Below, one piece after another: positions 1-63,111 of a DNA stretch of 64,000 bases (positions are counted from its first letter, which is position 1; the number at the start of each line of letters is the position of its first letter). A model generated the notes under the pieces. The model made no database searches. It worked only from the letters and a program-made list of their open reading frames with translations, and was not told where the DNA came from. The translations under genes were made by a program, and so were the position numbers. This DNA comes from a virus: the IMG/VR virus record IMGVR_UViG_3300027839_000001, positions 22,404 to 86,403 of that record; one strand, 5' to 3'.

Positions 1-2779
1 CAAGAACAGGGGCCTCAAGGCACCTACGATTGAGAAGGCTTGCATCGGATGGGACAAGACTTGGAAAGTAAAGAGCAACGATGGTCAGTGGACAGACGGA
101 CGCTACACCATACCAGTCAGGAACAAGAAGGGTGAAGTAAGGAACGTAAGGGGATACTCACCTCAGGCTGACGCATCATCCAAGATGATGAACCTAGTAA
201 CAGACAGGGGTTCACCGGCAGAGAGAAGGCACGGCACGCCGGTCAGGCTGTACAATCTAGACAGGCTGATAGCTGAGAACTGGGATCACGTAGTCATATG
301 CGAGGGCGAGTTTGATTGCATACTGTTGAATCAGATGTTCGCAGATGCTGGACTCACTACCTATGGTGCTGTCACTGGCACCCATGGTGTCAAAAGTTTT
401 GCACCTGAGTGGATGGAGTATCTCTTCGGTAAGTTCGTATACATCTGCTTCGACTGCGACGAAGAAGGCAAGCTGTCATCTCACAACGTAGCCAATAAGT
501 ACTTCCTCAAGGCACTGGAGGCATCCAAGTTTTCCACTGTAAAGATTATAGACCTGCCGCTGGAAGGAACGAAAGACTCGAAGGACCTCACCGACTTCTT
601 CCTTAAGTCAGAGCTTAACACCAATGACTTCCTTAAGATAATGGAAGAAACGCCAGAGCTTATATGCGGAGGCATGGACGGGGACGAGGCCACAGTCGAG
701 GCTGAAGAAGTAGACAACCTAGTCGTTGCCCTGAAAAACAGGAAGTACATCGACAAGAAGGTCACCGTGCCCATCACCATATCAGGTACAACATCAAAGA
801 TCTTCCATGCTATACGTAGCTACAAGATAAAGAAATGCCCACTGCTCGCAGGTGGTGAATGCTGTCACGCTGACGCTGGCACACAGACTATACCATATGG
901 GCACGCCCTGTTCATTGAAGCATGCATGCAGAAAGAGAGTGCAAACCTCAGGTCCATAGCCGAGATAGCATGTGCCAAGGGAAAGAAGTGCACGGTTGAG
1001 CCTATAACCAAGGTAGTCATGGAGGAGTACTACGCTCACCAAGTAGTGGAGAGATGGAGGGCTGAAGAAGATCAGGACGGCAGGCTACAGAATTCACAGG
1101 AGCTAGTTCAAACCCCAGTGTATATCCTTCAGCCAGAGGACAACATCACGATCCAGCCGCAGAACTACATGGCTACAGGCTGGATACGAACGCACCCGCA
1201 CACCGCTATAGCTACCCTGTTCGTGCAAGAGATGGTGCCAATGGAAGAGGACTGGCGACAGTTCGACATGGCACGGTCAGACAACAGGGAGGTAATGCAA
1301 GCACTGAAGGATGAGTTTACCGTACCTGAGATAATGCACGACCTAGTGCATGGGGTTACCAAGATCTATGATGCCGATCACATCCTGCTTACAGTCCTCC
1401 TCACTTACCTCTCACCATTGCACTACAACTTTAATGGAGGAAGAATCAGAGGCTGGGTCAACAGTGCCATCCTCGGTGACTCAGGCACAGGGAAGTCAGC
1501 GACTTATACTGCTCTATCCGACTGGATTGAACTCGGAGACTTGTTTTCGGCTTTATCTGGAACAAGGACTGGCCTGCTATACGCAATCAAACAGAAGGGC
1601 GGCGAGTGGATGATATCGATTGGTCGATACGTCCAAGCCTCATGTAAGATCATAGCAATCGATGAGACGCAAGAGAGTACAAAGGAAGAGATCAAGCGAA
1701 TGGCGATAGCCATGGACACTGGCTTTCTAAGCATCGAGCAGGTAGCCAGTGGCGGGTATCACACACAGACAAGAACGATCTTCCTCATGAACCCCAAGGA
1801 TGCAAACGGAGAAGCCGCCACGATATCCGACTTCGTCTTCGGGTGCGAAGCACTGAGGGAATGCTTCGACCCTATGTTTATTAGGCGTCTCGACCTAGCC
1901 GTGTTTTCCACTGGAAAGCATGACTATGATTTTTACAATCAGAAGTCAGAGATAGATGCAGAGATAAGGCTTACATCGAAAATGCTGAGAAGCTTAGTTC
2001 ACTGGGCATGGACTAGAAAGATAGATCAGATACACTGGTCGCCAGAGGCTACGGACATGTGCCTTGAGAAGACGACGGAGCTATCAGACAAGTACGGGTA
2101 TGTTGACGACATACCATTGGTCAATCCTCAGGACTTCAGGCTGAACCTAGCTAGGCTATCAACAGCCTATGCCGTACTGGACAGAAGCTTTACTGATGAC
2201 CTAATGGCTCTGAACGTAGAGCCGGAACACGTGGCCGCGATGGCTATGTTCATAGATTCAATCTACAGTTCGCCCGCCTGCTTGCTTCACCAGAAGTCCA
2301 ATCAGAACAGAAAGAGAAAGACACTGTCTGACTTCGATGAGATTAGGGAAGTATTCGAGGAGACTATCAAGCAGGCCAAGGACTCCTCCAATCAATTCTT
2401 CAGGGATGGCAATCACTTCTGTCAGATACTTCTGCTCATCGAACAGCTAGAGTCTGTCAAGAAGAGGGATCTTCAAGAGCAAATAGACATGAGATCTAGG
2501 TGGCTAGGGTCTAACATAGCCACTCTACAGGGATTCAATCTTATAACCAGCGGCAGGTGGGGATACAAGAAAACAAAGAAGTTCAACCTGTTCATGCAGA
2601 GATGGAGGCAGGACCAAGAGATAGCGGATATGCTAGAGGGAGTATTCTTAAACGTAGGAAAGGCTTCAAGGAGAGCTAACACTACAGAGTCATACACGTC
2701 TTCATTGCCATCAAAAAGCAGTGACGATCCATTCAGTGATTTCGATCACTCACAAGAGCAGGACGACCCGTTCAATTAG
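1..2779 (+). CDS. DnaG-type (TOPRIM) primase fused to MCM-like AAA+ helicase, 5'-truncated by window
   Basis: Frame is open from base 2 (KNRGL..TIEK..IGW..GRYTIPVRN, DnaG-like). TOPRIM motifs VVICEGEFD and CFDCDEEG; Walker A ILGDSGTGKS, Walker B IIAIDE, MCM-like AMDTGFLSIEQVA, FLMNPK and FIRRLDL. Confidence 0.85.
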   Translation, partial: KNRGLKAPTIEKACIGWDKTWKVKSNDGQWTDGRYTIPVRNKKGEVRNVRGYSPQADASSKMMNLVTDRGSPAERRHGTPVRLYNLDRLIAENWDHVVICEGEFDCILLNQMFADAGLTTYGAVTGTHGVKSFAPEWMEYLFGKFVYICFDCDEEGKLSSHNVANKYFLKALEASKFSTVKIIDLPLEGTKDSKDLTDFFLKSELNTNDFLKIMEETPELICGGMDGDEATVEAEEVDNLVVALKNRKYIDKKVTVPITISGTTSKIFHAIRSYKIKKCPLLAGGECCHADAGTQTIPYGHALFIEACMQKESANLRSIAEIACAKGKKCTVEPITKVVMEEYYAHQVVERWRAEEDQDGRLQNSQELVQTPVYILQPEDNITIQPQNYMATGWIRTHPHTAIATLFVQEMVPMEEDWRQFDMARSDNREVMQALKDEFTVPEIMHDLVHGVTKIYDADHILLTVLLTYLSPLHYNFNGGRIRGWVNSAILGDSGTGKSATYTALSDWIELGDLFSALSGTRTGLLYAIKQKGGEWMISIGRYVQASCKIIAIDETQESTKEEIKRMAIAMDTGFLSIEQVASGGYHTQTRTIFLMNPKDANGEAATISDFVFGCEALRECFDPMFIRRLDLAVFSTGKHDYDFYNQKSEIDAEIRLTSKMLRSLVHWAWTRKIDQIHWSPEATDMCLEKTTELSDKYGYVDDIPLVNPQDFRLNLARLSTAYAVLDRSFTDDLMALNVEPEHVAAMAMFIDSIYSSPACLLHQKSNQNRKRKTLSDFDEIREVFEETIKQAKDSSNQFFRDGNHFCQILLLIEQLESVKKRDLQEQIDMRSRWLGSNIATLQGFNLITSGRWGYKKTKKFNLFMQRWRQDQEIADMLEGVFLNVGKASRRANTTESYTSSLPSKSSDDPFSDFDHSQEQDDPFN

Positions 2780-2793
2780 ATCAGGAGTTTACA

Positions 2794-3399
2794 GTGGAAA
2801 TCTCAGACCTACCATCAGCGAACAAGCCAAGGCTACAAGAGGCTGGCCCCAGGAAATATAAGCGAGGAGAAGCAGACCTCGATCTCACAGAGGCCCATGA
2901 GATATACGAGAAGGATGCGATTGAGTATGCGTTGAACTTTGGCTGGAGCATAGCCACATGTATGAACGACGCACTTGAGAAGAGGCACGAAGGAAAGAAG
3001 TACCTGACAGTAAGGGAGTGCGACATAGCCTGGAGATCTAACTACGATCTCGGCAATGATATGATCTTCGAGGCGATGGAGATGTTCGGCACAATGCTGA
3101 CAGAGGGCATTGTTGGAGAAGACGGTAACCCGTGGGAGTTAAGAGAATACTACAACCGTGGCATAGCCTTCATGAAGAATGGAGGATGGGACAAGTCTTC
3201 ACCAGAGAAAAGAAAGAAGGCGGAGGATGCAATCAGGGACACGACCGACTCCCTAAGTCAGCTTGGGCTTCCAGCAACAGTAAATGAGATCTCTCACGGA
3301 TTCCATGCTGCACTTACTCGCCCTGAGTACATGACTGAGTATCAGTACAAGAGGGCGAGAAGCGAACGCAAGATTACATGGGGGTTCGGTGATGACTAA
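2794..3399 (+). CDS. hypothetical protein
   Basis: 201-aa ORF; AGGAG RBS; GTG start lies inside the 13-bp palindrome. Confidence 0.75.
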   Translation: MEISDLPSANKPRLQEAGPRKYKRGEADLDLTEAHEIYEKDAIEYALNFGWSIATCMNDALEKRHEGKKYLTVRECDIAWRSNYDLGNDMIFEAMEMFGTMLTEGIVGEDGNPWELREYYNRGIAFMKNGGWDKSSPEKRKKAEDAIRDTTDSLSQLGLPATVNEISHGFHAALTRPEYMTEYQYKRARSERKITWGFGDD

Positions 3400-3943
3400 G
3401 ATACTATCTATAGACCCAGGCATTAAGCACACCGGCGTTGCTTCATGGGAATTCAAGATACGAGGCATGGGCAGGGAAGGCATCAACTACGCAAAGAACA
3501 TACGGCCAAGGACGAAGTCAGAAGGGATACACGACAGAGCAAGGGACATAGCCCAGTCAGTACTAAGCCTTACCATCAAAGATGACTTTGATCACATAGT
3601 GATTGAGCAGCCGCCTCAGACAATCTACGGAGTCAAGACCCTTAAGAAGGAGATGCTTGCAGCCAGGGCACAGTCAGTATTCAAGGTGTTCGCTGTAGCA
3701 TACGCCATAGTGGGTGTACTCCTCAGCACTAAGACAGTGGACATGTGCCTTCCAATAGATTGGGAGAAGCACAGGGGCAAGAAGAAGGCAAAGCCATGGT
3801 CAGTCGAGACTGCCAACAAGCTTATAACTTCGTTTAATCCAACGTCGTCACTGATTGTTGATGGTGGAGTCAAGCAGAACATAGCCGATGCCATAAACAT
3901 CGGCTTCTACTTCGCAGTTAGCAAGGGATACTACGATGGCTGA
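3389..3943 (+). CDS. RuvC-like Holliday junction resolvase
   Basis: ILSIDPGIKHTG, IVIEQP and NIADAINIG acidic RNase H-fold motifs. Confidence 0.8.
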   Translation: MMTKILSIDPGIKHTGVASWEFKIRGMGREGINYAKNIRPRTKSEGIHDRARDIAQSVLSLTIKDDFDHIVIEQPPQTIYGVKTLKKEMLAARAQSVFKVFAVAYAIVGVLLSTKTVDMCLPIDWEKHRGKKKAKPWSVETANKLITSFNPTSSLIVDGGVKQNIADAINIGFYFAVSKGYYDG

Positions 3944-4877
3944 ACAGAAAAACATCTGCTCATACAAGGCAGTATGCAAGAAATGCAACATGGTGTCCCT
4001 CGATAACAGGCCAGCAATATGCAAAGAACTAGAATGCGAGCATCTAACCGTATGCTTAAAATGCGGAAAGAACAAGCACATAAAAGACGAAGACAAAACC
4101 CTGTGCGGGTCATGCTCTGGAAGAGGGGCGGACATAGAGTTCTCAACAAACGCAGAAGGAGACACGGTCGCCACCCCGGTAACGCAGAGCGATATCCACG
4201 AACCTATTTCCAGTGGAAACAATCAAACGGAGGGTGGTAATTCGGAGCTTGAGCAAACTGGAGTTGTCATAGAGATCACTCCACCTGGCGTAGCCCCAGA
4301 CTCATATTCTGAAGCCGAGAGGAAGTACTACCTTGAGCAGTACGAGCAGTACTCAGGCTACTACAGAGATCCGACCGCATACTTCCTGTGCCACCAGATC
4401 ATAATCACAGAGATTGAACTAAACTGGCTTACCTGTTACATGATCCAGACTAGGGGAGAGTTGACTAAGGAGCTTGACTCCAAGAAGACCAGACTCATAA
4501 GTAACCTCGAATCCCTTCGCAAACAGCTACCAGAGAAGGAAGCATTCGAGTTAAGCGACGACGAGAAGTCGATGGCGATGATTCACGACTCGTACATGAA
4601 GGAGAAGGAAGCAAGAGAGGGCCTTGGCGTGAGGAGGATGTTCAGTGATGCAGCCATAGCACTAGCACCTGTCCTAGACTTTCCAATGGACCTACAGTAC
4701 CTGCTTCAGTCACTTGGATATGATACCGTAACGGCATTAGATGTTGCACAGAAGCACTTAGACTCAGGGGCAGACCTGCCTGAGGACCCGCATCAAGTCG
4801 CCCTTTTCTTTGGGTATGAATTGAACAGCGAGTACGCATTACCACTAGATGGAAAGGCAAAAGAAGATGGCAACTAG
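3936..4877 (+). CDS. Cys-rich (zinc-finger) protein, possible terminase small subunit
   Basis: Several CxxC pairs at the N-terminus; directly upstream of and overlapping the terminase large subunit. Confidence 0.5.
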   Translation: MAEQKNICSYKAVCKKCNMVSLDNRPAICKELECEHLTVCLKCGKNKHIKDEDKTLCGSCSGRGADIEFSTNAEGDTVATPVTQSDIHEPISSGNNQTEGGNSELEQTGVVIEITPPGVAPDSYSEAERKYYLEQYEQYSGYYRDPTAYFLCHQIIITEIELNWLTCYMIQTRGELTKELDSKKTRLISNLESLRKQLPEKEAFELSDDEKSMAMIHDSYMKEKEAREGLGVRRMFSDAAIALAPVLDFPMDLQYLLQSLGYDTVTALDVAQKHLDSGADLPEDPHQVALFFGYELNSEYALPLDGKAKEDGN

Positions 4878-6615
4878 TCACGCATGGAGGAATGACAACA
4901 GGCTAACTGCGATGATGGTTGACGATTTCATACATGATCCGATTCTGGCAGCGAAGGTAATACTGAACGTAAAGCTCCCTCCGCATCAGGAGCTTAGGCT
5001 CGCAGAGATGTGGACTACCCACTTCACTATGGACGACTCAGGATTTTCCACTGGAAAGTCCTTTACTCTTGGACTGCTATCTGCACTGAGATCCTGCCTG
5101 TTTCCTAATCGAATCTCAGGAATCATCTCAGGTACGTTCCGTCAGGGACAGTTGATCTTTCAGAACTATGACAGATGGTACTCGTCATCCAAGATATTCA
5201 GAAGCTGCGTAAAGACACAGCAGGGCAGGCCAAGGATCACGCACGGAACCTCGGCATGGGAGATCCACTTCAGGGGAGGTGCCACCATCAGGGCGTTGCC
5301 TCCCAACTTCGACAAGGATAGTGAGCGGTTGAGATCAGAGCGTTGGCACGATGGGTACTTCGACGAGTGGACAATCTTTAATATAGCATCACTCACCAAG
5401 ACGCTATTCGGTCGAGTCACTGCGTTGAATGATTACCAAGATGACAAGATAATGCAGAACCACATACACTGCATGTCAACCCCAGGCTTCAGGCATGACA
5501 GGTCATACACGCTAGTCAAGAGTATCGACTCAAACATAGCCAGGGGCAATAAGGACTACGCGCGGTTTACATCCAACTACCGGCACGTGCCAGTAAACAA
5601 GAAGGAGTTCCAGGCGTTCGTTGATCGTCGAACAATCTTCACCATGCAGACCACGAACCCTGATGGCGTAGTGAAGTCAGAGATTGATGGCAGGTGGCAG
5701 AAGGACTCCATGTCTTTCTATTCGTCGAAGGACATCGATGCTAGACGGAGGCAGAACTCTCCCATGCTGCTGCAAAGACGCAGCGACAACGACATGTACG
5801 TTGCCGGGTACGATACAGCAAGGGGTGGATCTGATCACACTAAGTCTAGTGCAGATGACTTCTCTATATCTGTACTCAAGATATCCGACCTGTCAGAACC
5901 GCCGCAGCACTGCCTAACAATTCGGAAGAACAACATTCAATCTGAACACATGGCAGGAATAATCCAAGAGCTTCACAAGAAGTTTCAGTTTTCGTTCGTG
6001 TGCTACGATCCAGGCGGTGGTGGACTGTTCGTCAGGGATGAACTCAGGAAGACAGAGATACCGATACGAGGAAAGATAGAGTCAGTCATTCCAATGGTCG
6101 AGCTTGGAGATCCACATGGATTGATAGGTGACAATATACTGGTTCCGTTCAAGCGTGGAGATTTCTTCATTAATGCACTGTGGGGCAAGATGGCGTCTGA
6201 TAGCGTCATAGTAAACAGAATGCATAGAGCTATGAGGGATGCTATTTCCACTGGAAACATCATACTCCCAGGAAGATGGAACGGATGGGAAGAGGCTGGT
6301 GGTACGTGGGACGTTGGTGCCAAGAGGGAGTATCTGAACAGAGCGAAAGGAATGGCAGAGGCTGATGTGATACGTGCCGAGATGGACATAACTGTTGAGC
6401 AGTTAATCCAAGTTGACATCGCTAGACACAAAGACAAGTCGCCGTCCATAGACACATACGGAATGTACAAGTTTAAATCCAAGAATAAAAAAGATTCTGC
6501 ATACGGATTACTGTACTCGTTCGTTGCATACTCTATACTTAAAGCACTGAGCGGCAAGGACATGCCTGGAAGGCAAGGTGGATCTGATCTAGCAATTTCT
6601 ATTGACCCAATATAA
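4867..6615 (+). CDS. terminase large subunit
   Basis: Walker A-like SGFSTGKS, Walker B GYFDEW, nuclease motifs VAGYDTARGG/DDFS and KKDSAYG; precedes portal. Start ATG 4867 preferred to 4849. Confidence 0.85.
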   Translation: MATSHAWRNDNRLTAMMVDDFIHDPILAAKVILNVKLPPHQELRLAEMWTTHFTMDDSGFSTGKSFTLGLLSALRSCLFPNRISGIISGTFRQGQLIFQNYDRWYSSSKIFRSCVKTQQGRPRITHGTSAWEIHFRGGATIRALPPNFDKDSERLRSERWHDGYFDEWTIFNIASLTKTLFGRVTALNDYQDDKIMQNHIHCMSTPGFRHDRSYTLVKSIDSNIARGNKDYARFTSNYRHVPVNKKEFQAFVDRRTIFTMQTTNPDGVVKSEIDGRWQKDSMSFYSSKDIDARRRQNSPMLLQRRSDNDMYVAGYDTARGGSDHTKSSADDFSISVLKISDLSEPPQHCLTIRKNNIQSEHMAGIIQELHKKFQFSFVCYDPGGGGLFVRDELRKTEIPIRGKIESVIPMVELGDPHGLIGDNILVPFKRGDFFINALWGKMASDSVIVNRMHRAMRDAISTGNIILPGRWNGWEEAGGTWDVGAKREYLNRAKGMAEADVIRAEMDITVEQLIQVDIARHKDKSPSIDTYGMYKFKSKNKKDSAYGLLYSFVAYSILKALSGKDMPGRQGGSDLAISIDPI

Positions 6616-6665
6616 ATAAGCTGCCGATAAATCCTCTACACGAAACATTAGTGGAGAGAGTTTCA

Positions 6666-8339
6666 ATGGCAGACCTGCGTAAGATCATCATAGACGAGCC
6701 TGAAGAGACAGCCGAAGTCGGTGCCATCGAAATGATGGGCGTACCCATCAGGGAGTTCGCATTCAGCACTGTCGACACTGCGTTCACTAGCGGCAGCAGT
6801 ACAGGAGGCAGCGGCACAAGAATCAGGAAGACGACTCTTGATCGCTTGATGAATGACGCCACCCCTGCGGCCAAGCACACGCAGATTCGACGATCAATGG
6901 AGTGGTCAGAGAGGGATGACCTAGTCCAGGGACTGGTCAGAGTCAAGACTGACTTCACTACATCAGGCTTCAACATCGCCTGCGCTCCAGAAGTTTCCAG
7001 TGGAAATGAGAACGAGGTAGAGTTCTCTGCGTTCGAGGTAAAGCTCGCAAAGATCAAAAGGAAGTGGGACTTCTACGCCCTCACCAAGAAGCTTCTAAGC
7101 GACTGGTTCACATGCGATAGCATGATTCTGTACTGGAAGATCGACCCTAAGTCAGAGGGATCTCAGTCATCATCTGCGTCGGTGCCGCCAAAGCCACGCT
7201 CAAGGGAGGCACTTGTCCCTGGCCTACAGGACATCACCGCCCTTAACCCAGGCGACATCGACTGGAATAATTCGTTTGGAAACGATGTACTAAGGGTTGC
7301 AATTCCCATAGAGATAAGAAACAAGATACAGTATGCCCTTCGCCTCTATACAAAGGCAGAGCGAGAAGAGGCCCTCATGGCTCTCGTCAACGACGAAGGC
7401 ATACCGTTCGCATACATCAAGGCCGTGAAGACCGGCGACAGTATGGTTGCGTTGAACAGGGAAGACGGCCACAACTGGATAGTCAAGACCAACAACAGAA
7501 AGCATCACGGACTAGCCAAGCCATCCATGGCTAACATTTTCCTTCCGCTGGAAACTCGAAACAACTGTACGGACGGCGACTTCGCTACATCGTTCATGAT
7601 GAAGCACTTCATGCTGCACGCCAAGATGGGTGAGTCCATAACCCAAGGCCCTCTTGCTGGACAGAAGAACAACTGGGCCAAGCAGGATGATATCGACGCA
7701 CTTACAACCAAGCTCAAGGACACATCACAGGCCGCCAAGATAGTAACGAACCACACGGTGTCCTTCGACTTCATCTTCCCTCCCAACGACATGTTCTCTG
7801 GTGAGAAGTACAAGAAGCCAGAGGAGAGAATCTTCAACTGGGCAGGTGTTACCGTAGTGGTGTTCACTGGTGACGGTGGCAATTACGGCAGTGGATTCCT
7901 TGGAGTCAAGAGACTCATGGCTCACTTAGTAGACGCAAGGACTGAAGTAAAGTGGGTGCTATCTGAGTTCTTTGATCACGACAGCATAGTTGATCGAATA
8001 GAAACCCCAGAGAACTGCGTTGTCTCGGCAGGCTTCGATGAGAACGTCCTCAAGGAACCAGCACAGCTACTAAATGAGCTAAGGTTCCTCGCAGAGTATG
8101 CATGGACAGATCCACGAACAGCACACAAGGAGCTTGGAAGAGATCCTGATTCTACACTAAGGCAGAAGGCGATATCCAAAGCAGAGGAAGAGAAGACAAA
8201 GCTATGGTCATGGCCCGAGCCGCCCGATCCTTTCGGAGACAAAGGCGGTGAGCATCAGAACCCAGGTAGACCCGGCGTAGATGGAAACCCTGACGCCAAC
8301 GAAGGTACTAGAACACAACCCCCAGCAGGAGCATCGTAG
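6666..8339 (+). CDS. portal protein
   Basis: About 557 aa, between terminase and protease/capsid genes, with a Pro/Gly-rich C-terminal tail; GGAGAG upstream of ATG 6666. Confidence 0.7.
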   Translation: MADLRKIIIDEPEETAEVGAIEMMGVPIREFAFSTVDTAFTSGSSTGGSGTRIRKTTLDRLMNDATPAAKHTQIRRSMEWSERDDLVQGLVRVKTDFTTSGFNIACAPEVSSGNENEVEFSAFEVKLAKIKRKWDFYALTKKLLSDWFTCDSMILYWKIDPKSEGSQSSSASVPPKPRSREALVPGLQDITALNPGDIDWNNSFGNDVLRVAIPIEIRNKIQYALRLYTKAEREEALMALVNDEGIPFAYIKAVKTGDSMVALNREDGHNWIVKTNNRKHHGLAKPSMANIFLPLETRNNCTDGDFATSFMMKHFMLHAKMGESITQGPLAGQKNNWAKQDDIDALTTKLKDTSQAAKIVTNHTVSFDFIFPPNDMFSGEKYKKPEERIFNWAGVTVVVFTGDGGNYGSGFLGVKRLMAHLVDARTEVKWVLSEFFDHDSIVDRIETPENCVVSAGFDENVLKEPAQLLNELRFLAEYAWTDPRTAHKELGRDPDSTLRQKAISKAEEEKTKLWSWPEPPDPFGDKGGEHQNPGRPGVDGNPDANEGTRTQPPAGAS

Positions 8340-8340
8340 C

Positions 8341-10158
8341 ATGCCTTTCACACTTGACGATTTCATACACAAGATCGGCGCTCCTGAGTCAGGCGACTCT
8401 CGGGAGAGAGTAGTAGGAGACAACGCCTCCGTCCAGACCATGGACGTTGGTGAGATCAGGGACATGTTTCCAGATGTCCAGTTCTCTGATTCGCCAAACA
8501 TAATCTACTTCCCGATGAAGCTCTGCCATTCGCTACCTACAGTCAACAAGAAGCGACGGTGCTTCACCACCAAGACCCTGGCAAACTCCTTTGCTTCCGC
8601 TCAAGACAGCTTGATTGATATCGAGCATTCTCTTATTGACAATGGCATCTCCTCTCGCGATGAGATCTGTGGTCACATCAAAGCAGTGGCTTATGCCAAG
8701 GAAGGTTTACAGTGGAAAGAAGTTGCAGACGCAAGCTCGATCCCAGACAGCGCAGTCCCCTTGTACGCCCTCGGTGCCTTGTACATGCGGCACTCGAAGA
8801 TCCCAGACATAGTTAAGAACCACTTGACAGGACGCGAGCAGTGGAAGGTTTCGATGGAGTGCGGGCACAAGTGGTCCGATGCGGCCCTCTACTACCGAGA
8901 CGAGTTCATTCCATTTGCCGACGCAGATGGTGACATGCTTGAATGCGTTCACGGCAATGGAGTCAAAGACTACAAGGGTCACGAGATGGCAGTAGCCCTG
9001 GGTGGTGTCGACGGTAAGGTAAGCTTCTGGGGAGCAGGTATTACCACCTCCCCGGCAGATGATACCAGCGACGTACTGGCAATGGTTGCTGGCACCAGTC
9101 TCGAAGTCGCATCATCCAGCAGCGGAAAAATCTTTCTTCCACTAAAATATAAAATTTTTAGTGGTGAAGAAAATTGCGTGGAGGTTGCCAGCGTAGCTGT
9201 CGATACAATGATTAACGATTTAGCTAGCATTGCCATAATCGGCAAGACACAGCCTGGAGATGAAGACGGGCACGTTCATGAAATTCTTAGCGACGGAACG
9301 ATTTTGCCGTCCAATGGTCACGTACATTATCTACAGAACATGAACTTAGTGAGGGGCAACAAGCCTAAGCTCACTGGACGAACCGACACTCACCACAGTT
9401 ATTGGCGAGATCCTCAGGGCACAGAGCATTCTGAGGTTCATCTGCACATCGTTGACGTGCCGCTCAGGGGTAAGAACAACTCTGGCGACACAGTTGTACC
9501 AGAAGAAGCATCCTTACCCGGAGACATCGAAGTGAAATTCAAAGATCTATTCAAGAAAATGGAAGACGCAACTAAAAAGATTTCCAGTGGAAATCCGGTA
9601 GACGAGGCGACTCAAAAAGAGTTCGCAAGTCTAGTCACTGAGATGCGTCAGTCGTCCGTACAGGCAGACTTTGACGAGTCAGTCAAGAGTGAGATCGCCA
9701 GCCAGATTGAAGGCGGCGAACTCATGACTAAAGAGCAGCACGAAACTATGCTTAACGAGGCTCTTGAGTTGAAGCAAACTGAATTTGATGCAGTCAAAGC
9801 ATCGGACGAAAAGCATGCATCGCGACTCAAGGAAATCTCAGACATCGGAGTCAACCTTGAATACAAGTTCGAGGAAGATGACGAAGAGACAATCGAAGAA
9901 CAAGTTAAAGCCATGTCGCACGACGAAGCTGGCGACAAGATGTTCAAGAGAACGATCAATCTCCTGAAGCAACTGGCTAAGGCCGCAACCTCCGAAGAAG
10001 AAGTTGAAGAAGTTGAAGTCGTCGCTGATACTGCGAGCGTCAACAAGAAGGTTCAACTACTGGTAGGCGCTGGGTCAACTGAACAGGCCGCTGAAACGGC
10101 AAGCACGAAAGTAACGAAGAGTCTTCGTGGACGAAGTGCAATCTCTTACGCTAAGTAA
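8341..10158 (+). CDS. prohead protease/scaffold fusion
   Basis: Protease-like N-terminus (IDIEH, KVSMEC, FWGAGITTSPAD) and acidic coiled-coil C-terminus; position before the capsid genes; AGGAG before ATG 8341. Confidence 0.65.
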   Translation: MPFTLDDFIHKIGAPESGDSRERVVGDNASVQTMDVGEIRDMFPDVQFSDSPNIIYFPMKLCHSLPTVNKKRRCFTTKTLANSFASAQDSLIDIEHSLIDNGISSRDEICGHIKAVAYAKEGLQWKEVADASSIPDSAVPLYALGALYMRHSKIPDIVKNHLTGREQWKVSMECGHKWSDAALYYRDEFIPFADADGDMLECVHGNGVKDYKGHEMAVALGGVDGKVSFWGAGITTSPADDTSDVLAMVAGTSLEVASSSSGKIFLPLKYKIFSGEENCVEVASVAVDTMINDLASIAIIGKTQPGDEDGHVHEILSDGTILPSNGHVHYLQNMNLVRGNKPKLTGRTDTHHSYWRDPQGTEHSEVHLHIVDVPLRGKNNSGDTVVPEEASLPGDIEVKFKDLFKKMEDATKKISSGNPVDEATQKEFASLVTEMRQSSVQADFDESVKSEIASQIEGGELMTKEQHETMLNEALELKQTEFDAVKASDEKHASRLKEISDIGVNLEYKFEEDDEETIEEQVKAMSHDEAGDKMFKRTINLLKQLAKAATSEEEVEEVEVVADTASVNKKVQLLVGAGSTEQAAETASTKVTKSLRGRSAISYAK

Positions 10159-10794: not shown

Positions 10795-10866
10795 AAGTTT
10801 CCACTGGAAAACCAGAGATACAATTTTCAAAATAGATTATAATAAATTTCCATTGGAGCTATAAAC

Positions 10867-14361: not shown

Positions 14362-14402
14362 TTTCCACTGTAAACTAATACTGTGCAAGCCTGCTGCAAC
14401 CC

Positions 14403-16291: not shown

Positions 16292-16307
16292 GGAGTTTCC
16301 ACTGTAA

Positions 16308-17849: not shown

Positions 17850-17868
17850 TCTTTCCACTGGAAATATC

Positions 17869-22371: not shown

Positions 22372-22404
22372 CCGCAAGGTAAATAATTTACACTGGAAAG
22401 AAAC

Positions 22405-51270: not shown

Positions 51271-51768
51271 CTACTCCCATGCTTTCTTTACAGTGGAAAC
51301 TGCACTCAGTTTATCCACAAAGCTTACGTTACCTCTGTCTTGTTCAGCCTGCACTTCGGACATGACAGTCACGCAGTGCTTCTCTATCAGTGCCGCTTCT
51401 TCCAGGCCCACTTTGAGGGACTCTGATATATCTTTTGCTTCCACCTCATACACTGGCACGTACTGCCTGACGATTGACGCAAGCTGTAGGTGCTTGCTAC
51501 GTACTATGACATGTGCCTTCGCAGCCGCTCGGGCTATAATCTTTTCAACACCGTTGGCATGGAATGCATGCATGTGCTTAGTGAACCCTTCAAGGGACAC
51601 TACCATTAACAACGTGCTGTCCTTAATCTTTATCGAGTGACTGTACTTGTCATACTCGACCTTCAACTTTACCAGATGCGGTATCTCTGGCTCTTTGTTT
51701 TTATCTTTTTCTGGTTCGCTTGGACTTGGATTCGGCCCTTGCCCTGGAGGTTTTTTGCCATCTGTCAT
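51271..51768 (-). CDS. hypothetical protein
   Basis: 165-aa ORF. Confidence 0.6.
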   Translation of the reverse strand: MTDGKKPPGQGPNPSPSEPEKDKNKEPEIPHLVKLKVEYDKYSHSIKIKDSTLLMVVSLEGFTKHMHAFHANGVEKIIARAAAKAHVIVRSKHLQLASIVRQYVPVYEVEAKDISESLKVGLEEAALIEKHCVTVMSEVQAEQDRGNVSFVDKLSAVSTVKKAWE

Positions 51769-52080: not shown

Positions 52081-52653
52081 TTATTTCTCTTTCTCTGCTT
52101 TCTTAAGTTCTTTCTCTCTTGCCTTCTCCGCAGCCTGCTCAATGTCCCAGTGTAGTTTCCACTGGAAATCGGAAGGGTACTTGTTGACCTCCAGTACGTT
52201 GAAGTCCTTCTCGTTTGCCTGGTCCCTCATGAGTGCTACTACATACGGACACTTCTTTGCTACCTTTGAACCACGGTACTTACCTTGCTTGGCAGGCATG
52301 AGTGATGTCATTGTGATGCACTTCTTTCCTCCGTACTTAGAAGCCATGGCAGCAAGCCTCCACCATTGACCGTACTGGCGAATGAGGGAGTTTCCTATGA
52401 CTGACTTGCCTTCTAGTCTGACGGTATCCGATACGTGGAACTCAGGCCACTCGGTATCATGCTCTGCTTCGGGGTCCGGCAGTACATCAGTCTCATCGGA
52501 TTCTGCCGAGTAATCTTTTTTCGCTTTCTCTATAGCTTCAATGAGAGTGGTGCCACATGTACCAACGTATGTGACGCCGTCCTTTTGCCATGCATAATGC
52601 TCAAGGCCAGCAAGGAATCCCTGCAACCACACTTCTGCCATTACCTTAGCCAT
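52081..52653 (-). CDS. hypothetical protein
   Basis: 190 aa; GAGGAGG upstream. Confidence 0.6.
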   Translation of the reverse strand: MAKVMAEVWLQGFLAGLEHYAWQKDGVTYVGTCGTTLIEAIEKAKKDYSAESDETDVLPDPEAEHDTEWPEFHVSDTVRLEGKSVIGNSLIRQYGQWWRLAAMASKYGGKKCITMTSLMPAKQGKYRGSKVAKKCPYVVALMRDQANEKDFNVLEVNKYPSDFQWKLHWDIEQAAEKAREKELKKAEKEK

Positions 52654-52919: not shown

Positions 52920-53207
52920 TTACGTAGGTTGATTGGGGTTCTTAAAGTACACTGCCTCTGGGTCAAGGTAGTCCCATACTTTTCCAGTGGAAACTTCCTT
53001 GGCTGATATGATGCTGGCACTGTCAGATATGACATCGGTGCGAGCAAGGATCACCGCTTGTTCTAGGTCTGGTGATGGTTGGTTCATCTTGATTGATCGC
53101 TCGGCACCGTTACCGTTACAGCAATGCTCGTCACCATCCTTAGGTAGTGGGCCGAGGGTATAGTATATGACGTACTGGGAGCCGGTTATGGTACGTAGTT
53201 CTGCCAT
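52920..53207 (-). CDS. hypothetical protein
   Basis: 95-aa ORF. Confidence 0.55.
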   Translation of the reverse strand: MAELRTITGSQYVIYYTLGPLPKDGDEHCCNGNGAERSIKMNQPSPDLEQAVILARTDVISDSASIISAKEVSTGKVWDYLDPEAVYFKNPNQPT

Positions 53208-53401: not shown

Positions 53402-53989
53402 CTATACTTGCTGCTCTGGTTCAGTAGGTTCTTCTTCTGCAATCTTCTTCACTGCGTGTGCAGTAGCATCGTCAAGCCTAGTATGCCCTGACTCAATTGG
53501 CTTGAGGTATGTCAGTTCGTATGACTTGCCAAGCAGGCCAGCTTTCTTGCATGCATCGGCAACTTTGAGTACCTCGTTGTAATCGTTGCACTCAACAAGT
53601 TCGCAGGCATCGAGCAGTTCTTTCTTGATCCACCCTCCCACTGTCATGTCACTGCTGGAACTTGACCCGCGTGTCACCTCACGGTAGTCCGAGTACGAAG
53701 CAAGGATGTCATCAAGACACTGGAACTTGACCCTCGATGATGACAGTGCAATGGTGATGATGTTCTCCATGCCTGCACTGATTGCTTGGAATCCATGGTA
53801 CATTAGCGTTACCTCTTTGTGATAGTTGGTACTAGTGTAGCCCGCACCAGGGGCACGCAGCTTTGTTGGTGACGGCAACATGCCATTGATGTGCTTGTTC
53901 TTACCGCCTCGCTTGCCTTGGTTCTTTCCACTGGAAATCTTCTTGGCTTGCTTGGCAGCGTACTCTTCAGGTGTATTAACTTTAGTCAT
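53402..53989 (-). CDS. hypothetical protein
   Basis: AAGGA RBS before ATG 53989. Confidence 0.6.
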   Translation of the reverse strand: MTKVNTPEEYAAKQAKKISSGKNQGKRGGKNKHINGMLPSPTKLRAPGAGYTSTNYHKEVTLMYHGFQAISAGMENIITIALSSSRVKFQCLDDILASYSDYREVTRGSSSSSDMTVGGWIKKELLDACELVECNDYNEVLKVADACKKAGLLGKSYELTYLKPIESGHTRLDDATAHAVKKIAEEEPTEPEQQV

Positions 53990-54969: not shown

Positions 54970-54997
54970 TTGCTTTATCCTTTATTTCCACTGTAAA

Positions 54998-56145: not shown

Positions 56146-56250
56146 TTAAGGTTTATAGTTAGGCGGCGAATTGAATAGCACTGCTACTCCCATGATGAAG
56201 CATCCGATAGCCGCTAGTGTGAACAGGTTGAGTGTTAGTACGATTTCCAC
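56146..56250 (-). CDS. 34-aa membrane peptide starting inside the palindrome
   Basis: AAGGAAG-TTTACA-GTG; MEIVLTLNLFTLAAIGCFIMGVAVLFNSPPNYKP*. Confidence 0.5.
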   Translation of the reverse strand: MEIVLTLNLFTLAAIGCFIMGVAVLFNSPPNYKP

Positions 56251-56287
56251 TGTAAACTTCCTTGTTGATGTGGGAATAGTGATAGAC

Positions 56288-57463
56288 CTAGAACCATGAT
56301 GCGAGCATGCCATTGGGTAGCGTGCCTTCGTTGAGTCCCTTGATTAACTCAGTGGCTGCGGGATAGCTAGACATGCTACCCTTGTGGTACTTACGCTGAG
56401 TGAATGACCTGAATGGTATGGCTGCGGTCATGTCCCACATGCCAGCCCTGCTGTTCTTTCGTTCATTGAACCGTGCCATGTGATCGTACCATTCACAGTA
56501 GCATGGCTCGCCATTGAGGTAGCAGCACAGTGCGCTGGCTACGGCGGAGGGGGAGAAATACCCAAGGGATTCACAGATCATGTGAGCTAAGAGCCGAGGG
56601 TACTTGAGTGCCACCATCTCCCGTGTCCATCTGTTGTACTGAGGCACGACGAATGAACGATGCCTGTTGCGTAGATCCCTGGCCGATACGACATGACTAC
56701 CATAGCCCATGTCGTATGAGTTGGCGGGTTCGAGTACGGCAACATCAACATCGGGATCATCATTGATGTAGAGGACAGCGAAGGAACCATAGAACGTAAG
56801 GCCCTTGGGTGTCTCGCCACTCCATGATACCAAGTGATTGGTAGTTCGTGCTGCATTGCGAGCGTGCCGAATCTCTCCAGTACCCTTGGGTCCATCACCT
56901 GAATCACTGCATTGAGAGCAGTAGCTGGTGTCATCGTGGGCGGTGAGTCCGTTACGCCATACTTCATCAGTCTGCTTGGCAGTAAGGCGGGTAGCATCTT
57001 TCTTCTCACCGAACGTGCCCTTGTCCTCGTGAGTGTTGTCGTTAATCTTGAGCCACTGTTCTTTATAGGGCTTGCTGTGGTCATGCCAGATATACATACG
57101 CTCAGTGTCAGTGTTCTTTCCATGGTCTGCAAAGCCACTGCCTTCACACCGAGGGCATACATGAGGGGTGAACGCCGTGATGGGGTCTTTGTCTGTGTCT
57201 TCGACGATGCCAACGTCCTCGATGTTACATGTGACGTATGGCTTGTCCTCACCTGGCGTACCGTACTCAACCCACACCTCGACTATCGGTGTTGGCCTGC
57301 CTGCTACCCATGGCCTGTCCCATGGTTCATTAGGATTTCCAATGGAAACCCATGCGTTTCTACCTGCGATTCCATACCGTGTCATGAGGTACGTGCTTGG
57401 CATGATGGTGCGGTATAGCATGCCGGGTGTCATTGACGCTGTCGTGTTAACCTTGGTTCTCAT
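56288..57463 (-). CDS. hypothetical protein with CxxCxGxG zinc motifs
   Basis: CPRCEGSG and CSQCSDSG; AAGGA RBS before ATG 57463. Confidence 0.65.
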   Translation of the reverse strand: MRTKVNTTASMTPGMLYRTIMPSTYLMTRYGIAGRNAWVSIGNPNEPWDRPWVAGRPTPIVEVWVEYGTPGEDKPYVTCNIEDVGIVEDTDKDPITAFTPHVCPRCEGSGFADHGKNTDTERMYIWHDHSKPYKEQWLKINDNTHEDKGTFGEKKDATRLTAKQTDEVWRNGLTAHDDTSYCSQCSDSGDGPKGTGEIRHARNAARTTNHLVSWSGETPKGLTFYGSFAVLYINDDPDVDVAVLEPANSYDMGYGSHVVSARDLRNRHRSFVVPQYNRWTREMVALKYPRLLAHMICESLGYFSPSAVASALCCYLNGEPCYCEWYDHMARFNERKNSRAGMWDMTAAIPFRSFTQRKYHKGSMSSYPAATELIKGLNEGTLPNGMLASWF

Positions 57464-57713
57464 TTGCTTTGTCCTTACTCTTGGGGTTAGATGTCTCACT
57501 CATCTCTCGTAAACTAAACTTGATTGAACACAGTGGGCAGAAGTCCATTGCTCGTCTCTTGCAATTCTCGTAGCGTAACAGCTTCCAGCCCAATGATGTG
57601 AGCCATGAGCCTATAGCTTCGATCCTTGCTTCGTTGGTATCTACATTGTACCTCTCGAAGTCAAAGACTTGGCCGCACTTGCTGCATGTTACTCGGTCGA
57701 TGATCTGTCGCAT
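57447..57713 (-). CDS. small zinc-ribbon protein
   Basis: CSKCG..GW..DFCPLC. Confidence 0.6.
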   Translation of the reverse strand: MRQIIDRVTCSKCGQVFDFERYNVDTNEARIEAIGSWLTSLGWKLLRYENCKRRAMDFCPLCSIKFSLREMSETSNPKSKDKANENQG

Positions 57714-58471: not shown

Positions 58472-58519
58472 TTGCATTTCTCCTTGCGTGTTAGTTGGCG
58501 TTAGTTTACAGTGGAAATG

Positions 58520-58869: not shown

Positions 58870-59388
58870 TTAGCCCCCTGTGCTTACGGTATTTACAGTG
58901 GAAATAGTAGCGGCGTATGGTGCCGAGGTCCACGGTGATGTGCGTACACTACAATGATACACTTCATTGAGTGCAGTGAATAGCTTGTCGGCTTGCCAGT
59001 CAACGTGCCGACGTGCTAGGTTAGGTTCGGCATACTCTCTCATGCATACACCAATGCCTTGATGCCATGCTTCACCTGCCGTATCCCATACGACAGTGAT
59101 AAGCTCGCTTGCAAATACAGCGGCGGTGTCTCTGCTGTGATTGAAGTCCTTGATGTCGTACCCGTCATCGTTGTAGTAGGACCTGATGCGATCCATTGAT
59201 GGGTACATAGAGCGAGACATACATTCAACTAGTGAAACGTATGCCTCATGGTATTCATGCTCGTCGTTAACGTCTAGGTCAAGTGAGTCGGATGACCCAC
59301 CTGGACCCATTGACAGGTCAACGTAGACCAGCCGGTAATACTCATCCCATTGATTGGGTGTACTGGGAAACCAGTTTCCTCGGCCCAT
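58870..59388 (-). CDS. hypothetical protein
   Basis: MGRGNWF start; AAGGAG RBS. Confidence 0.65.
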   Translation of the reverse strand: MGRGNWFPSTPNQWDEYYRLVYVDLSMGPGGSSDSLDLDVNDEHEYHEAYVSLVECMSRSMYPSMDRIRSYYNDDGYDIKDFNHSRDTAAVFASELITVVWDTAGEAWHQGIGVCMREYAEPNLARRHVDWQADKLFTALNEVYHCSVRTSPWTSAPYAATISTVNTVSTGG

Positions 59389-59434
59389 TTGCTTTCTCCT
59401 TCTTGTTAGATGCTGTTAAGATTTACAGTGGAAA

Positions 59435-60061: not shown

Positions 60062-60297
60062 TGTATTGTCCTTGTTTACAGTGGAAATGCGGGTGGAAAT
60101 ATAAAACATGTGGGACGGTGTGGTCGTGATGCTCCCCCCATTAAAGAAAGCATCGTACTCCATCCGTTCGTTATGCTACGTACACTATTGGAAAGACACG
60201 GCAATGTCAGCCGTGGTACATAGTAACTGCCCACATGGTGAGCAGGTGCCGTTAAGCACCATGATCTGCATGAGTGGTGAGAATTGAAAGGCTCGCC

Positions 60298-61150: not shown

Positions 61151-61202
61151 TACTCCAATAGGTTAATGTTTACAGTGGAAATGTGAACGGAAATGTGAGT
61201 AG

Positions 61203-61478
61203 AAAAACACACCCCATGCCACGCCAAACCTGAGGGTAAGAAGGGTTGGCTTGCACTGCTAAGGATCGGGCAGGAAACCTAGCAGCGTGTGACACAGGGC
61301 ATGTGCGGTACTAGTGACTGCTCTCTAGTACCATGCTTCGATGTACAGTACAGGTCATTGAGTTCATTGAGTTCATTGAGTTCGCCAAGGTTGGTTGCGT
61401 AGTAGAAGTAGAGCTTGGGTTTAAGCTGGACAGTGAAGAGGAGCCATGATTCTTTCCAATGTAAAGATGGTGGGGAAC
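61203..61478 (-). ncRNA. candidate structured leader or small RNA
   Basis: Downstream of a consensus promoter; multi-stem fold with G-U pairs ending in a U-tract. Confidence 0.35.
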
Positions 61479-61484: not shown

Positions 61485-61513
61485 ATTATACCATACATAT
61501 GGCACCTTGTCAA
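61485..61513 (-). promoter_or_regulatory. consensus sigma70 promoter
   Basis: Minus strand TTGACA-17 nt-TATAAT with extended -10 TG. Confidence 0.9.
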
Positions 61514-61972: not shown

Positions 61973-62040
61973 GTGTAACATCCTTGCATGTTTACAGTAT
62001 TTACAGTGGAAAGAATCTACTGGCATCCCTGCTGGCATCC

Positions 62041-62604
62041 CTACTCATACTCAAGTGCTGCGGCGGCGTTGAGTGCTTGCTGTTCTACACGTGTCAGCTT
62101 ATACCACCAGTGTGGTGCCTTGTCTGTGTTATCGGCATCGAGTCTACCATCGGGTGTCTCGACTGTACCATCAGGGGTGTCCGTTACATGGTCATGTCCG
62201 TCACCACCCAGCGGGGTAGCAGTGCCCGCCTCTACTGACTCTTGATGGATGCGCCATAGCTTACGGTAAAGCTTGTCACTATTCCTGTCCTCTTCAGGTA
62301 GGAACTGCTGGTATGATAGGCATTCGGCTGCCTCGTCAGCAGTGTATGAGGTGAGGTAGTAATTCATTGGGGTGGGTGGTAGCTCATCAGTCAGGTCAGC
62401 GGAAGGATCGTGTGCTGGCATTCCCTTGTCGTGAAATGTCAGCCGCTTTACCTTGATTACCTCGCAGACCTTACGCTTGCAGTCCCTTGCTGCCTGCCTC
62501 TTGACTGACGCGAATGTAATGCCATCCCCTTCCCACTCTTGAGGCAGTAGGTGTCGTGCATTGGGCAACGGTGCAAATGTGACTCGGAATCTACTAGTCT
62601 TCAT
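62041..62604 (-). CDS. hypothetical protein
   Basis: 187 aa; GAGGA RBS. Confidence 0.6.
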   Translation of the reverse strand: MKTSRFRVTFAPLPNARHLLPQEWEGDGITFASVKRQAARDCKRKVCEVIKVKRLTFHDKGMPAHDPSADLTDELPPTPMNYYLTSYTADEAAECLSYQQFLPEEDRNSDKLYRKLWRIHQESVEAGTATPLGGDGHDHVTDTPDGTVETPDGRLDADNTDKAPHWWYKLTRVEQQALNAAAALEYE

Positions 62605-62622
62605 TGTTCTTTTCCTCTTGTG

Positions 62623-63111
62623 TTAGTTGTCTGAATGTATCATCTGAATGCACCAATCATCATGGTCCCGTTCCCAGTAACCATCTTCAATGGAGTCTTC
62701 AATGTCGTCGGGAATTTCGCCGTTGGTGTGTTCTTCTATGAGTGCCCTGAAGAGTGCCTCTGCCTCTTCGGATGTGCTGAAAGAGTGCAGTGAAACTACT
62801 GTCCCTGTACTGTCAACCTCTAGTACATTAATTGTGTCCATTGTTCTTGTCCTCTGTGTCGGTACAGGCGTTGGTACTAGTATGTCATCAATTGAAATGC
62901 GGTAGTCAAGGTCGCGCTTATACTGGTGCAGTGCGTCGATGTCACCACCCTCATCAAGAGTAATATGGACAAAGACTTGCGTGACGATGGACTGTCCATT
63001 GGAGCTGCGAGTTAAGGGCTGGCTTTCCAGTGTAAACTCTTTGGTAACTGGTCGGCCATCTATCAGTGCGATGAAGTCATTGCGGTCCAGTGTTAGTCGA
63101 AGCCTAGCCAT
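62623..63111 (-). CDS. hypothetical protein
   Basis: 162 aa; GGAGGA RBS. Confidence 0.6.
   Translation of the reverse strand: MARLRLTLDRNDFIALIDGRPVTKEFTLESQPLTRSSNGQSIVTQVFVHITLDEGGDIDALHQYKRDLDYRISIDDILVPTPVPTQRTRTMDTINVLEVDSTGTVVSLHSFSTSEEAEALFRALIEEHTNGEIPDDIEDSIEDGYWERDHDDWCIQMIHSDN

Follow-up and report, generated by a model that had tools for sequence, protein, structure and literature searches.

Genome context

We analysed a 64,000-nt stretch of viral DNA, positions 22404-86403 of the 86,403-bp record IMGVR_UViG_3300027839_000001 (hereafter the window), along which a 13-bp palindrome, TTT(C/A)CA-N-TG(G/T)AAA, recurs about once per kilobase in what we call the lattice. As the record carries a terminal repeat of 99 bp, we take it to be a complete circular assembly, with a circular length of 86,304 bp. 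Open reading frames (ORFs), called crudely, cover ~95% of the genome, and a tape-measure protein and a portal mark it as that of a tailed phage. Coordinates below are those of the window unless otherwise stated.

The window begins (1-2779, + strand) in the 3' part of a 3.3-kb gene, starting 523 nt 5' of the window, that encodes a 1,100-aa primase-helicase in which an MCM P-loop domain (match 3e-11) is fused to Toprim. Beyond it lie a portal-like ORF (6651-8339), a 4.5-kb tape-measure gene, a tyrosine recombinase/integrase (42453-43622, - strand), a 3.8-kb gene for a 1,265-aa SNF2 helicase, and the gene of P0012 (49234-51096, - strand), a 620-aa orphan ParB/KorB-like protein recognized by family profile and structure model. 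A PD-(D/E)XK nuclease and a RecD2 helicase are also among the phage genes. The presence of the integrase suggests that the phage is temperate, and a FliA/WhiG-type sigma factor, RecD2 and AGGAG ribosome sites indicate that its host is bacterial. The sequence has been recovered repeatedly in seawater metagenomes, across many studies. Searches of 50,697 cultured phage records with the window DNA, the portal, P0012 and P0013 (a representative of the P0012 family) gave neither nucleotide nor protein matches.

A 13-bp palindrome is spaced evenly around the chromosome

Scanning the window for the palindrome (TTTMCANTGKAAA) gave 60 exact copies between 531 and 63036, compared with a mean of 0.01 in 100 dinucleotide shuffles. 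This reproduces the count and positions reported in a first-pass annotation of the window made from its letters alone. The lattice goes on round the rest of the circle, for 85 copies in total, with a mean circular gap of 1,015 bp, a coefficient of variation of 0.453 and a gamma shape of 4.7. Only 8 gaps in the genome are shorter than 500 bp, while ~33 would be expected under random placement. In the window the corresponding figure is 5 of 59, and a single gap exceeds 2 kb (17852-21365), both as the annotation had it. This gap holds two near-copies, TTTACAACGGAAA at 18937-18949, in the tape-measure gene, and TTTCCGCTGTAAA at 19658-19670, each one mismatch off the degenerate pattern.

The annotation had also called the spacing even, and the gap distribution is indeed non-random. 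The observed coefficient of variation was reached in 0 of 20,000 simulations under each of five null models: uniform placement; placement at 85 of 120 gene junctions; junctions plus uniform positions; junction sites fixed with internal sites randomized; and the reverse. The even spacing is thus not a by-product of gene length.

The two half-sites do not vary freely. Across the genome, 38 copies are perfect, 46 carry exactly one change (C4>A or G10>T) and 1 carries both, where ~7 doubles would be predicted if the half-sites were independent. The claim that at most one half-site ever deviates therefore holds throughout the window but not beyond it, the sole double lying at genome position 16426. 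Eighty of the 85 copies have C or G at the centre, and the flanking bases are almost without information (at most 0.14 bits), apart from the absence of a fourth T. Together, these data confirm that the lattice is real and statistically very strong. We read the palindrome as a probable DNA-level binding site for a dimeric phage protein, kept by selection at about one copy per kilobase round the chromosome.

The pattern of variants also bears on whether the word might act in RNA, as a hairpin affecting transcript processing, stability or termination. A 6-bp stem with a 3-nt loop (-4.3 kcal/mol) is available to the perfect 15-mer, G-TTTCCASTGGAAA-C, the word stands at a fixed distance before start codons in two other viral contigs considered below (L003 and L004), and the sense-strand centre base is C in 53 of the 80 C/G-centred copies (G in the other 27). 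A similar C-over-G bias is seen in the related contigs G007 (18:8) and L093 (10:1), and not in L096 or L100. However, 54% of the phage's copies carry an uncompensated mismatch, the compensated double variant is not in use (46 singles, 1 double), and copies inside genes would do harm as processing sites. The perfect 13-mer reaches only -1.7 kcal/mol and variant copies do not fold (0 kcal/mol), as the annotation had anticipated in arguing against a hairpin. For this phage, the RNA reading is largely refuted, and we regard it as extremely improbable.

Copies occupy gene boundaries and the interiors of genes

Forty-six copies lie at least 60 nt inside ORFs, distributed over the three reading frames 32/11/3. 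Synonymous-codon shuffling of the genes left 0.76 +/- 0.86 internal copies, with a maximum of 4 in 200 shuffles. Because so many in-gene copies are retained, in all three frames, selection must act on the DNA rather than on the protein; this was the annotation's view, and the copies it noted in both transcription arms and in different frames, with the peptides it quoted, are present. At the same time, copies are strongly enriched at gene boundaries, with ~33 of 85 within 40 nt of the 3' end of a gene, intergenic placement being the cheapest location for the word. Long genes are filled at the same pitch: those for the primase-helicase, the SNF2 helicase and the tape-measure protein have internal copies or near-copies ~1 kb apart. 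Taken with the shuffling result, this indicates selection on the word and on its spacing.

The individual copies, called by pattern match and given without strand, are either perfect (both arms consensus) or variant (one changed half-site). The primase-helicase gene contains a variant copy at 531-543 and a perfect one at 1905-1917 (aa 812, the same residue as a copy in G007), and at the following gene boundary a variant copy (2788-2800) supplies the GTG start of ORF 2794-3399, with AGGAG before it. Perfect copies come next in ORF 3936-4877 (4207-4219; aa 93, same residue in G007), twice in ORF 4849-6615 (5045-5057, a position common to G007 and L100, and 6245-6257, which the relatives do not have) and in the portal-like ORF (6994-7006). 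ORF 8281-10158 has a variant copy at 8706-8718 and a perfect copy at 9581-9593, after which perfect copies are found at a gene boundary (10798-10810), in ORF 10867-12135 (11654-11666, centre T) and in small ORFs (12415-12427 and 13528-13540). A variant copy immediately 3' of a stop codon (14362-14374) marks a further boundary; it is followed by a perfect copy in ORF 15012-16073 (15424-15436), a variant boundary copy (16296-16308), a variant copy in ORF 17322-17849 (17584-17596) and a perfect copy on the boundary directly 5' of the tape-measure gene (17852-17864), which itself carries a variant copy at 21365-21377.

In the next part of the window, boundary copies are mostly variants (22387-22399; 24522-24534, where the motif leads through TAAA into an ATG; 25256-25268; 26465-26477; 28116-28128; 30812-30824; and 33433-33445, at a stop/start junction), with perfect copies close to an ORF 5' end (23521-23533), at a gene boundary (29901-29913) and in ORF 30829-33432 (31637-31649). 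Three copies share ORF 34523-36526, a variant at 35751-35763 between perfect ones at 35024-35036 and 35936-35948, and another perfect copy lies in ORF 36472-36960 (36643-36655). Perfect copies close to ORF 5' ends (38008-38020 and 39385-39397) stand on either side of a variant boundary copy with a GTG start within the motif (38360-38372). Perfect copies then lie in ORF 40493-41032 (40728-40740), ORF 41059-42471 on the - strand (41847-41859), the integrase gene (43102-43114), small ORFs (44541-44553, centre A), ORF 44989-45414 on the - strand (45194-45206) and the SNF2 helicase gene (46900-46912), which has a variant copy at 48230-48242 and another at its 5' end (49123-49135).

The gene of P0012 includes a variant copy (49958-49970), and a second variant lies at a gene boundary ~190 nt upstream of its start (51287-51299). 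Perfect copies occur close to ORF 3' ends (52156-52168 and 52981-52993), close to an ORF 5' end (53925-53937) and, with centre A, in ORF 56288-57499 on the - strand (57336-57348). The remaining copies are variants: at gene boundaries (54985-54997, 56244-56256, 58505-58517, 58892-58904, 59422-59434 and 62000-62012), directly upstream of a - strand ATG (60075-60087), in intergenic DNA (61169-61181), close to an ORF 5' end (63024-63036) and, at 61453-61465 with centre A, in the interval separating an ATG from its perfect sigma70-like promoter (~61485-61513, - strand). Eleven sigma70-like promoter hits were found in the genome, both perfect promoters having a nearby copy, in the manner of KorB class I operators. 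With 85 sites against 11 such hits, we rejected the idea that the word is itself a promoter element.

Some copies are built into gene starts, the GTG start codon falling inside the motif at 2794 and 38366. An identical 25-mer comprising a stop codon, AGGAG and the motif surrounds each (2777-2801 and 38349-38373), its internal GTG being the predicted start of the next gene. In addition, near-identical repeats of ~37 bp (~26453-26489 and ~28104-28140), each with a lattice copy at its centre, flank a single 1.65-kb gene (26638-28104) and could mark a cassette exchanged by recombination. Such junction linkers, and the occurrence of the same word in unrelated phages, are what would be expected if phages infecting the same cell recombined through the micro-homology of the junction word, in a manner comparable to T4-type promoter/stem-loop cassettes. 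Module exchange nevertheless leaves the in-gene copies, the even spacing and the ban on double variants unexplained, and 13 bp is very short for homologous recombination; we consider it very improbable.

Other features of the genome touch on these genes. The perfect copy at 5045-5057 encodes F-S-T-G-K within a conserved G-F-S-T-G-K-S (Walker A P-loop form) of ORF 4849-6615, at the same residue in three genomes; this ORF, a neighbour of the portal gene without a match in Pfam or PHROG, is possibly that of the large terminase. RecD2 is split over two ORFs, an N-terminal part and a motor part (L001:18659-19570 and L002:2423-3856), with two small genes between them, and both edges of the insert carry lattice copies. 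AT skew is very strong on the coding strand over window positions 1-64000 (A>T, +0.13 to +0.22) and changes sign at ~40.5 kb, where transcription changes direction; GC skew flips likewise. The sole tRNA call, by ARAGORN, is a 91-nt tRNA-Asp (26945-27035, - strand) within a protein-coding ORF and is probably a false positive.

The word is conserved in divergent relatives

Relatives were found by scanning for two copies of the word at set distances. One is G007, a 33.7-kb fragment (47% GC) syntenic with genome positions 9.9-31 kb at protein identities of 24-46%, which has a lattice of its own: 28 copies, all with perfect arms, at a mean gap of 1,205 bp and a coefficient of variation of 0.43 (P < 5e-5). 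L100 (39% GC) has 5 copies in 4.8 kb and encodes orthologues of the portal and of ORF 4849-6615 (51% identical). Dense series are also present in L093 (51% GC; 11 copies in 9.6 kb) and L096 (59% GC; 16 copies in 12 kb), whose protein matches to the window's phage are weak. The TTTACA half-site variant is found, among lattice phages, only in the phage of the window. No relatives came from viral-contig scans that took the primase-helicase or the ParB-family alignments (A3, A4) as seeds, and one with the alignment of ORF 4849-6615 orthologues returned only G007 and L100.

About 12 in-gene sites could be mapped on aligned orthologues. Four positions were kept (aa 68 of ORF 4849-6615, aa 812 and ~aa 350 of the primase-helicase, and aa 93 of ORF 3936-4877), and the others had moved. 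As the word is identical while the proteins have diverged to 24-50% identity and GC content ranges from 39 to 59%, a conserved reader is hard to avoid. That this spacing of one site per kilobase persists in relatives with protein identities down to ~25% implies a function that acts over short distances and adds up along the DNA.

A pair scan of one genome from each of 185,579 prokaryote species gave 20 loci, none of them a chromosome-wide series. Among the species represented, no host therefore carries the lattice; the annotation had named an equal motif density in the host chromosome as something that would refute its view. Host-wide words such as Chi, DNA uptake sequences and HIP1 differ in this respect, being frequent in the host chromosome. 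The word could thus discriminate, as would be needed were it a Chi-like self-mark labelling the DNA as the phage's for some nuclease, helicase or modification enzyme of either host or phage. Even spacing would suit a signal of limited protective range, and the phage has RecD2, the PD-(D/E)XK nuclease and the large SNF2 helicase. Known Chi and uptake words, however, are short, asymmetric and common to the host chromosome, nothing links any phage nuclease to the word, and no modification enzyme such as Tet/JBP was found, so we view self-marking as decidedly improbable. The lack of a Tet/JBP gene also ruled out a ParB-activated thymine dioxygenase (PMC13229309).

Use of the word, we would argue, extends beyond a single phage lineage. 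Unrelated viral contigs also contain the 15-mer G-TTTCCASTGGAAA-C, namely L003 (66% GC) and a marine group comprising L004, L006, L009 and L012 (40% GC, T7-type replication genes). In L003 and the L004 group, it forms no lattice; its copies gather just ahead of small early genes, 15-25 nt upstream. The clusters lie at L003:1900-6492 and L004:8206-12707, with others in L006, L009, L012, L052, L066 and L069. On a 2.8-kb Shewanella hafniensis contig (L026:1119-2190), 12 copies of the same 15-mer are arranged in compound repeat units of ~64, 110 and 175 bp; this array looks iteron- or centromere-like, of a plasmid or phage. GP88 (PF17338), which lies amid the sites in both L003 and L004, was considered as a shared reader and rejected, being absent from the window's phage and present (48% identical) in a phage devoid of the word, Roseobacter phage CRP-235. 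We also set aside AT-rich loci (L005, L007, L008, L010, L011 and L013-L015), where one conserved gene or protein repeat with two degenerate matches reflects chance, and tandem arrays with 32-41-bp periods (L042, L043, L048, L060 and L070), which are satellite-like repeats and uninformative.

Comparison with genome-wide repeats of other phages

Placement ahead of genes recalls the stoperators of Cluster A mycobacteriophages, at which a temperate immunity repressor, L5 gp71, acts. Like the lattice, these are 13-bp sites repeated over a temperate phage genome, and there they effect genome-wide silencing (PMC9283540, PMC6550527). A repressor outside the ParB family might in the same way block transcription across the prophage here. 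The integrase, the strong enrichment of sites at gene boundaries and 5' ends, and the position of the word 15-30 nt upstream of start codons in L003, L004 and L096 all agree with this, and phage repressor sites of such a kind are the nearest counterparts in the literature (PMC9283540, PMC4351075). Yet stoperators are asymmetric, oriented with transcription, intergenic and bound by a monomeric repressor, whereas the lattice sites are palindromic, evenly spaced and half in genes, with only a 2:1 centre-base bias to mark orientation. About half of the copies lie deep in long genes at kilobase spacing, where they are unneeded for blocking operon starts; no repressor candidate was found, the early genes being without family matches. 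We consider a stoperator-like system quite unlikely.

Cluster O mycobacteriophages offer the other published analogue, a 17-bp dyad repeat, TGTTCGG-N3-CCGAACA, for which the authors predicted a dimeric binder (PMC4351075). The likeness lies in dozens of copies of one palindrome, between and inside genes, in a phage genome of ~70 kb; the differences are another word, ~34 copies (~1 per 2 kb) and a concentration mostly in one arm, and neither even spacing nor conservation over distant relatives was reported (PMC4351075). The annotation's statement that no such phage system had been described must therefore be narrowed: Cluster O (>30 copies; PMC4351075) and Cluster A analogues are published, but both are sparser and not reported to be evenly spaced. 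We found no published phage system with one-per-kilobase density, measured regularity and conservation in distant relatives.

Two orphan ParB-family proteins are candidate readers

The complete genome encodes two orphan ParB-family proteins, P0001 and P0012. As no ParA (IncC-type partner) was found in it, with no AAA_31 or CbiA match, classical partition is unlikely. P0012 combines an NTP-binding fold at its N terminus, in which GxxR (GYCR) and ENxxRxD boxes can be recognized, with a ~60-aa insert, a helix-turn-helix (HTH), a helical C-terminal domain and an acidic tail. Alone, it matched no Pfam or PHROG model and gave no match in a word-indexed search. An exhaustive profile search placed it in a family of proteins of ~540-690 aa with 64 cluster representatives at E < 1e-10, members of which match Pfam ParB_N (10/39), KorB (6/39) and HTH_ParB (5/39). 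Against structures, the family profile matches ParB/Noc (1e-13) and KorB (1e-5). The AlphaFold model of P0012 has pLDDT >90 over 340 residues. When it was compared by Foldseek, ParB, Noc and KorB clamps took all the top places (probability 1.0), the highest target-normalised TM-score being 0.55, for the KorB-KorA complex.

P0001 (L001:14959-16335, upstream of the window) matches Pfam HTH_ParB (2e-16), Noc as its best NCBIfam model (1e-21) and the Spo0J structure of T. thermophilus (2e-15), and only distant ParB relatives of it were found. Its Box II is reduced to GFCR. The gene has an orthologue in G007, and the order of P0001 and the FliA/WhiG-type sigma factor gene directly 3' of it (L001:16498-17379) is kept there.

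Of the two, P0012 is favoured as the reader. Its HTH matches the homologue in L093 no less well than the remainder of the protein does (~37% vs 27% identity), while the HTH of P0001 lags behind the remainder when compared with the G007 orthologue (~21% vs 32%). The L093 homologue is 27% identical (E 7e-10), and its gene has a perfect TTGACA-17-TATAAT promoter with a copy of the word 11 nt upstream. From these comparisons we prefer P0012 to P0001 as the candidate reader, with modest confidence.

A second palindrome, AGWCR-N3-YGWCT, also 13 bp, has 15 of its 17 genome copies in a divergent non-coding control region at genome 4.5-5.4 kb (L001:4510-5410), often paired 20 bp apart and interleaved with two lattice copies. 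This cluster is likely an origin, centromere or operator array. It would be a natural target of the other ParB protein or of a replication initiator.

The annotation had likened the palindrome to the operator of KorB (OB) on plasmid RK2 and to the sites of Noc, a comparison that proves apt: the phage encodes two ParB-family proteins, one from a family matching the Pfam KorB and ParB domains. In both RK2 and the phage, a ParB-family protein is encoded on the same replicon as the dispersed sites, and the sites share a 13-bp architecture, TTT-N3-S-N3-AAA, although their inner six bases differ (taking the OB sequence as the annotation quoted it). On RK2, 12 OB sites are dispersed over 60 kb, near promoters, far off them and inside genes (PMC11790492, PMC13768133), and KorB brings about long-range silencing as a CTP-dependent sliding clamp (PMC11790492). 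The phage differs in having 85 evenly spaced sites on 86 kb and no detected counterpart of the ParA-type partner IncC. No KorA-like partner was matched among the scanned phage proteins, in which no family-directed KorA search was made. P0012, whose binding to the word is putative, differs from KorB in its length of ~600 aa, its insert and its C-terminal domain. Noc, too, is an orphan ParB paralogue with no ParA partner and recognizes numerous scattered palindromes, as the phage candidates would (PMC7383237, PMC8429893), and its binding site (NBS), ATTTCCCGGGAAAT, has the half-site TTTCC in common with the phage word (PMC7383237). The NBS, however, is an even palindrome of 14-16 bp on a 4-Mb chromosome, whereas the phage word is an odd 13-mer.

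The word is identical to the core of archaeal origin boxes

The annotation missed one further identity: the 13-mer is the dyad core of the archaeal origin recognition boxes (ORBs), consensus GTTCCAGTGGAAAC..GGGG, which are bound by Orc1/Cdc6 (PMC4153887, PMC1868953). Published ORBs contain the phage word, for example as TTTCCACTGGAAACAG-AGGGGT, and a TTACA variant occurs too; ORB3 of 'Ca. Methanomassiliicoccus alvus' begins TTTCCACTGGAAAC, and ORB variants with TTACAGTGGAAA exist (PMC4153887, PMC1868953). Many of the pair-hits in our own genome scan were archaeal, and 7 of the 8 tested adjoin orc1/cdc6. Since they stand beside this gene and are flanked by C- or G-rich strings, we take the archaeal paired copies to be ORBs. 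On seven archaeal contigs (L019, L021, L022, L023, L024, L028 and L036), inverted pairs of the word ~270-310 bp apart beside orc1/cdc6 represent oriC ORB elements. Chance identity over 12 specified bases is unlikely. A reader domain in common, convergent evolution towards a favourable DNA shape or a function in replication may account for it; being unexpected, the identity deserves explanation whether the reader is a ParB-family protein or a replication protein.

If replication is the function, the word would be an ORB-like recognition element for the Toprim and MCM-type primase-helicase, here the candidate reader, or for an initiator that we did not recognize. The lattice would then provide many helicase-loading sites, or lagging-strand priming signals about one Okazaki fragment (~1 kb) apart, and a palindrome would serve forks of either direction. 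A length of ~1 kb is usual for bacterial Okazaki fragments, which counts in favour of this reading, as do the MCM P-loop domain of the phage helicase and the conservation of the protein, which at 44% identity is among the best conserved in G007. Atlas look-alikes of its C-terminal 300 aa fall in MCM_lid and winged-helix clusters (score 0.85), which we treat as a lead only.

DnaG-type primases, on the other hand, are known to read trinucleotides, not 13-bp palindromes. ORBs and mini-ORBs share only the core word with the lattice: they have a G-string and stand in few copies round an unwinding element next to orc1/cdc6, while the phage sites have neither G-string nor other flank information (at most 0.14 bits), are dispersed as 85 copies with no clustering at an AT-rich unwinding element, and belong to a phage whose host is indicated to be bacterial. 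No Cdc6/Orc1 winged helix was found in the genome (no Cdc6_C match), contig L004 has the word together with a T7-type DnaB-primase and no MCM, and it is the iteron-like cluster of the second palindrome, in the divergent control region, that resembles a true origin or centromere. On balance we consider a replication role, the main rival to a ParB-family reader, unlikely.

A model for the lattice

We favour, tentatively and at somewhat less than even confidence, a model in which the lattice consists of loading sites for a ParB/KorB-type clamp of the phage that covers the chromosome. Dimers of a ParB-family protein would nucleate at each palindrome and then close into nucleotide-dependent clamps, like those of KorB, Noc and ParB, that move a short way along the flanking DNA. 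With so limited a reach, kilobase spacing of the sites would leave no part of the chromosome bare. The purpose might be genome-wide transcriptional silencing or timing, or the compaction or sequestration of phage DNA.

Several observations weigh against this model. Our confidence in a ParB-family reader stays below half mainly on account of the exact match between the word and the archaeal ORB core, together with the presence of an MCM-type helicase in the phage. Clamp behaviour with CTP is uncertain, since both ParB proteins have GxxR, not the canonical GERRxR; the P0012 family keeps the invariant G and R of GxxR, along with ENxxR, and not the second and third arginines of GERRxR. At the four positions that set parS/NBS specificity, P0001 has E-L-R-S, where Noc has Q-K-K-R, and P0012 has approximately A-L-A-S, neither set being that of ParB or of Noc, so that these residues give no prediction of the target (PMC7383237). 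Finally, the word occurs in L003 and the L004 group, in whose examined parts (52-76% complete by CheckV) no ParB-like gene was found, so another reader or a host factor is possible.

With these reservations, we propose, more tentatively still, that a marine tailed phage lineage organizes its chromosome by a kilobase lattice that is read by an unrecognized branch of KorB-like ParB proteins of ~600 aa, a phage "chromatin" that may coat, silence or sequester the genome; the alternative is a multi-site replication system with an MCM-type helicase. Orphan ParB-like genes are common in phages, where their role is not known, and a survey of them describes no such lattice (PMC12704722). Genome-wide dyad repeats in phages, such as those of Cluster O, have been unexplained since 2015. 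The lattice provides a concrete pairing of a 13-bp word with two candidate readers. Should a ParB/KorB-type clamp prove to be the reader, this would be a virus that programs full-length cover of its own chromosome, with a bearing on phage gene silencing, protection from host defences and DNA compaction.

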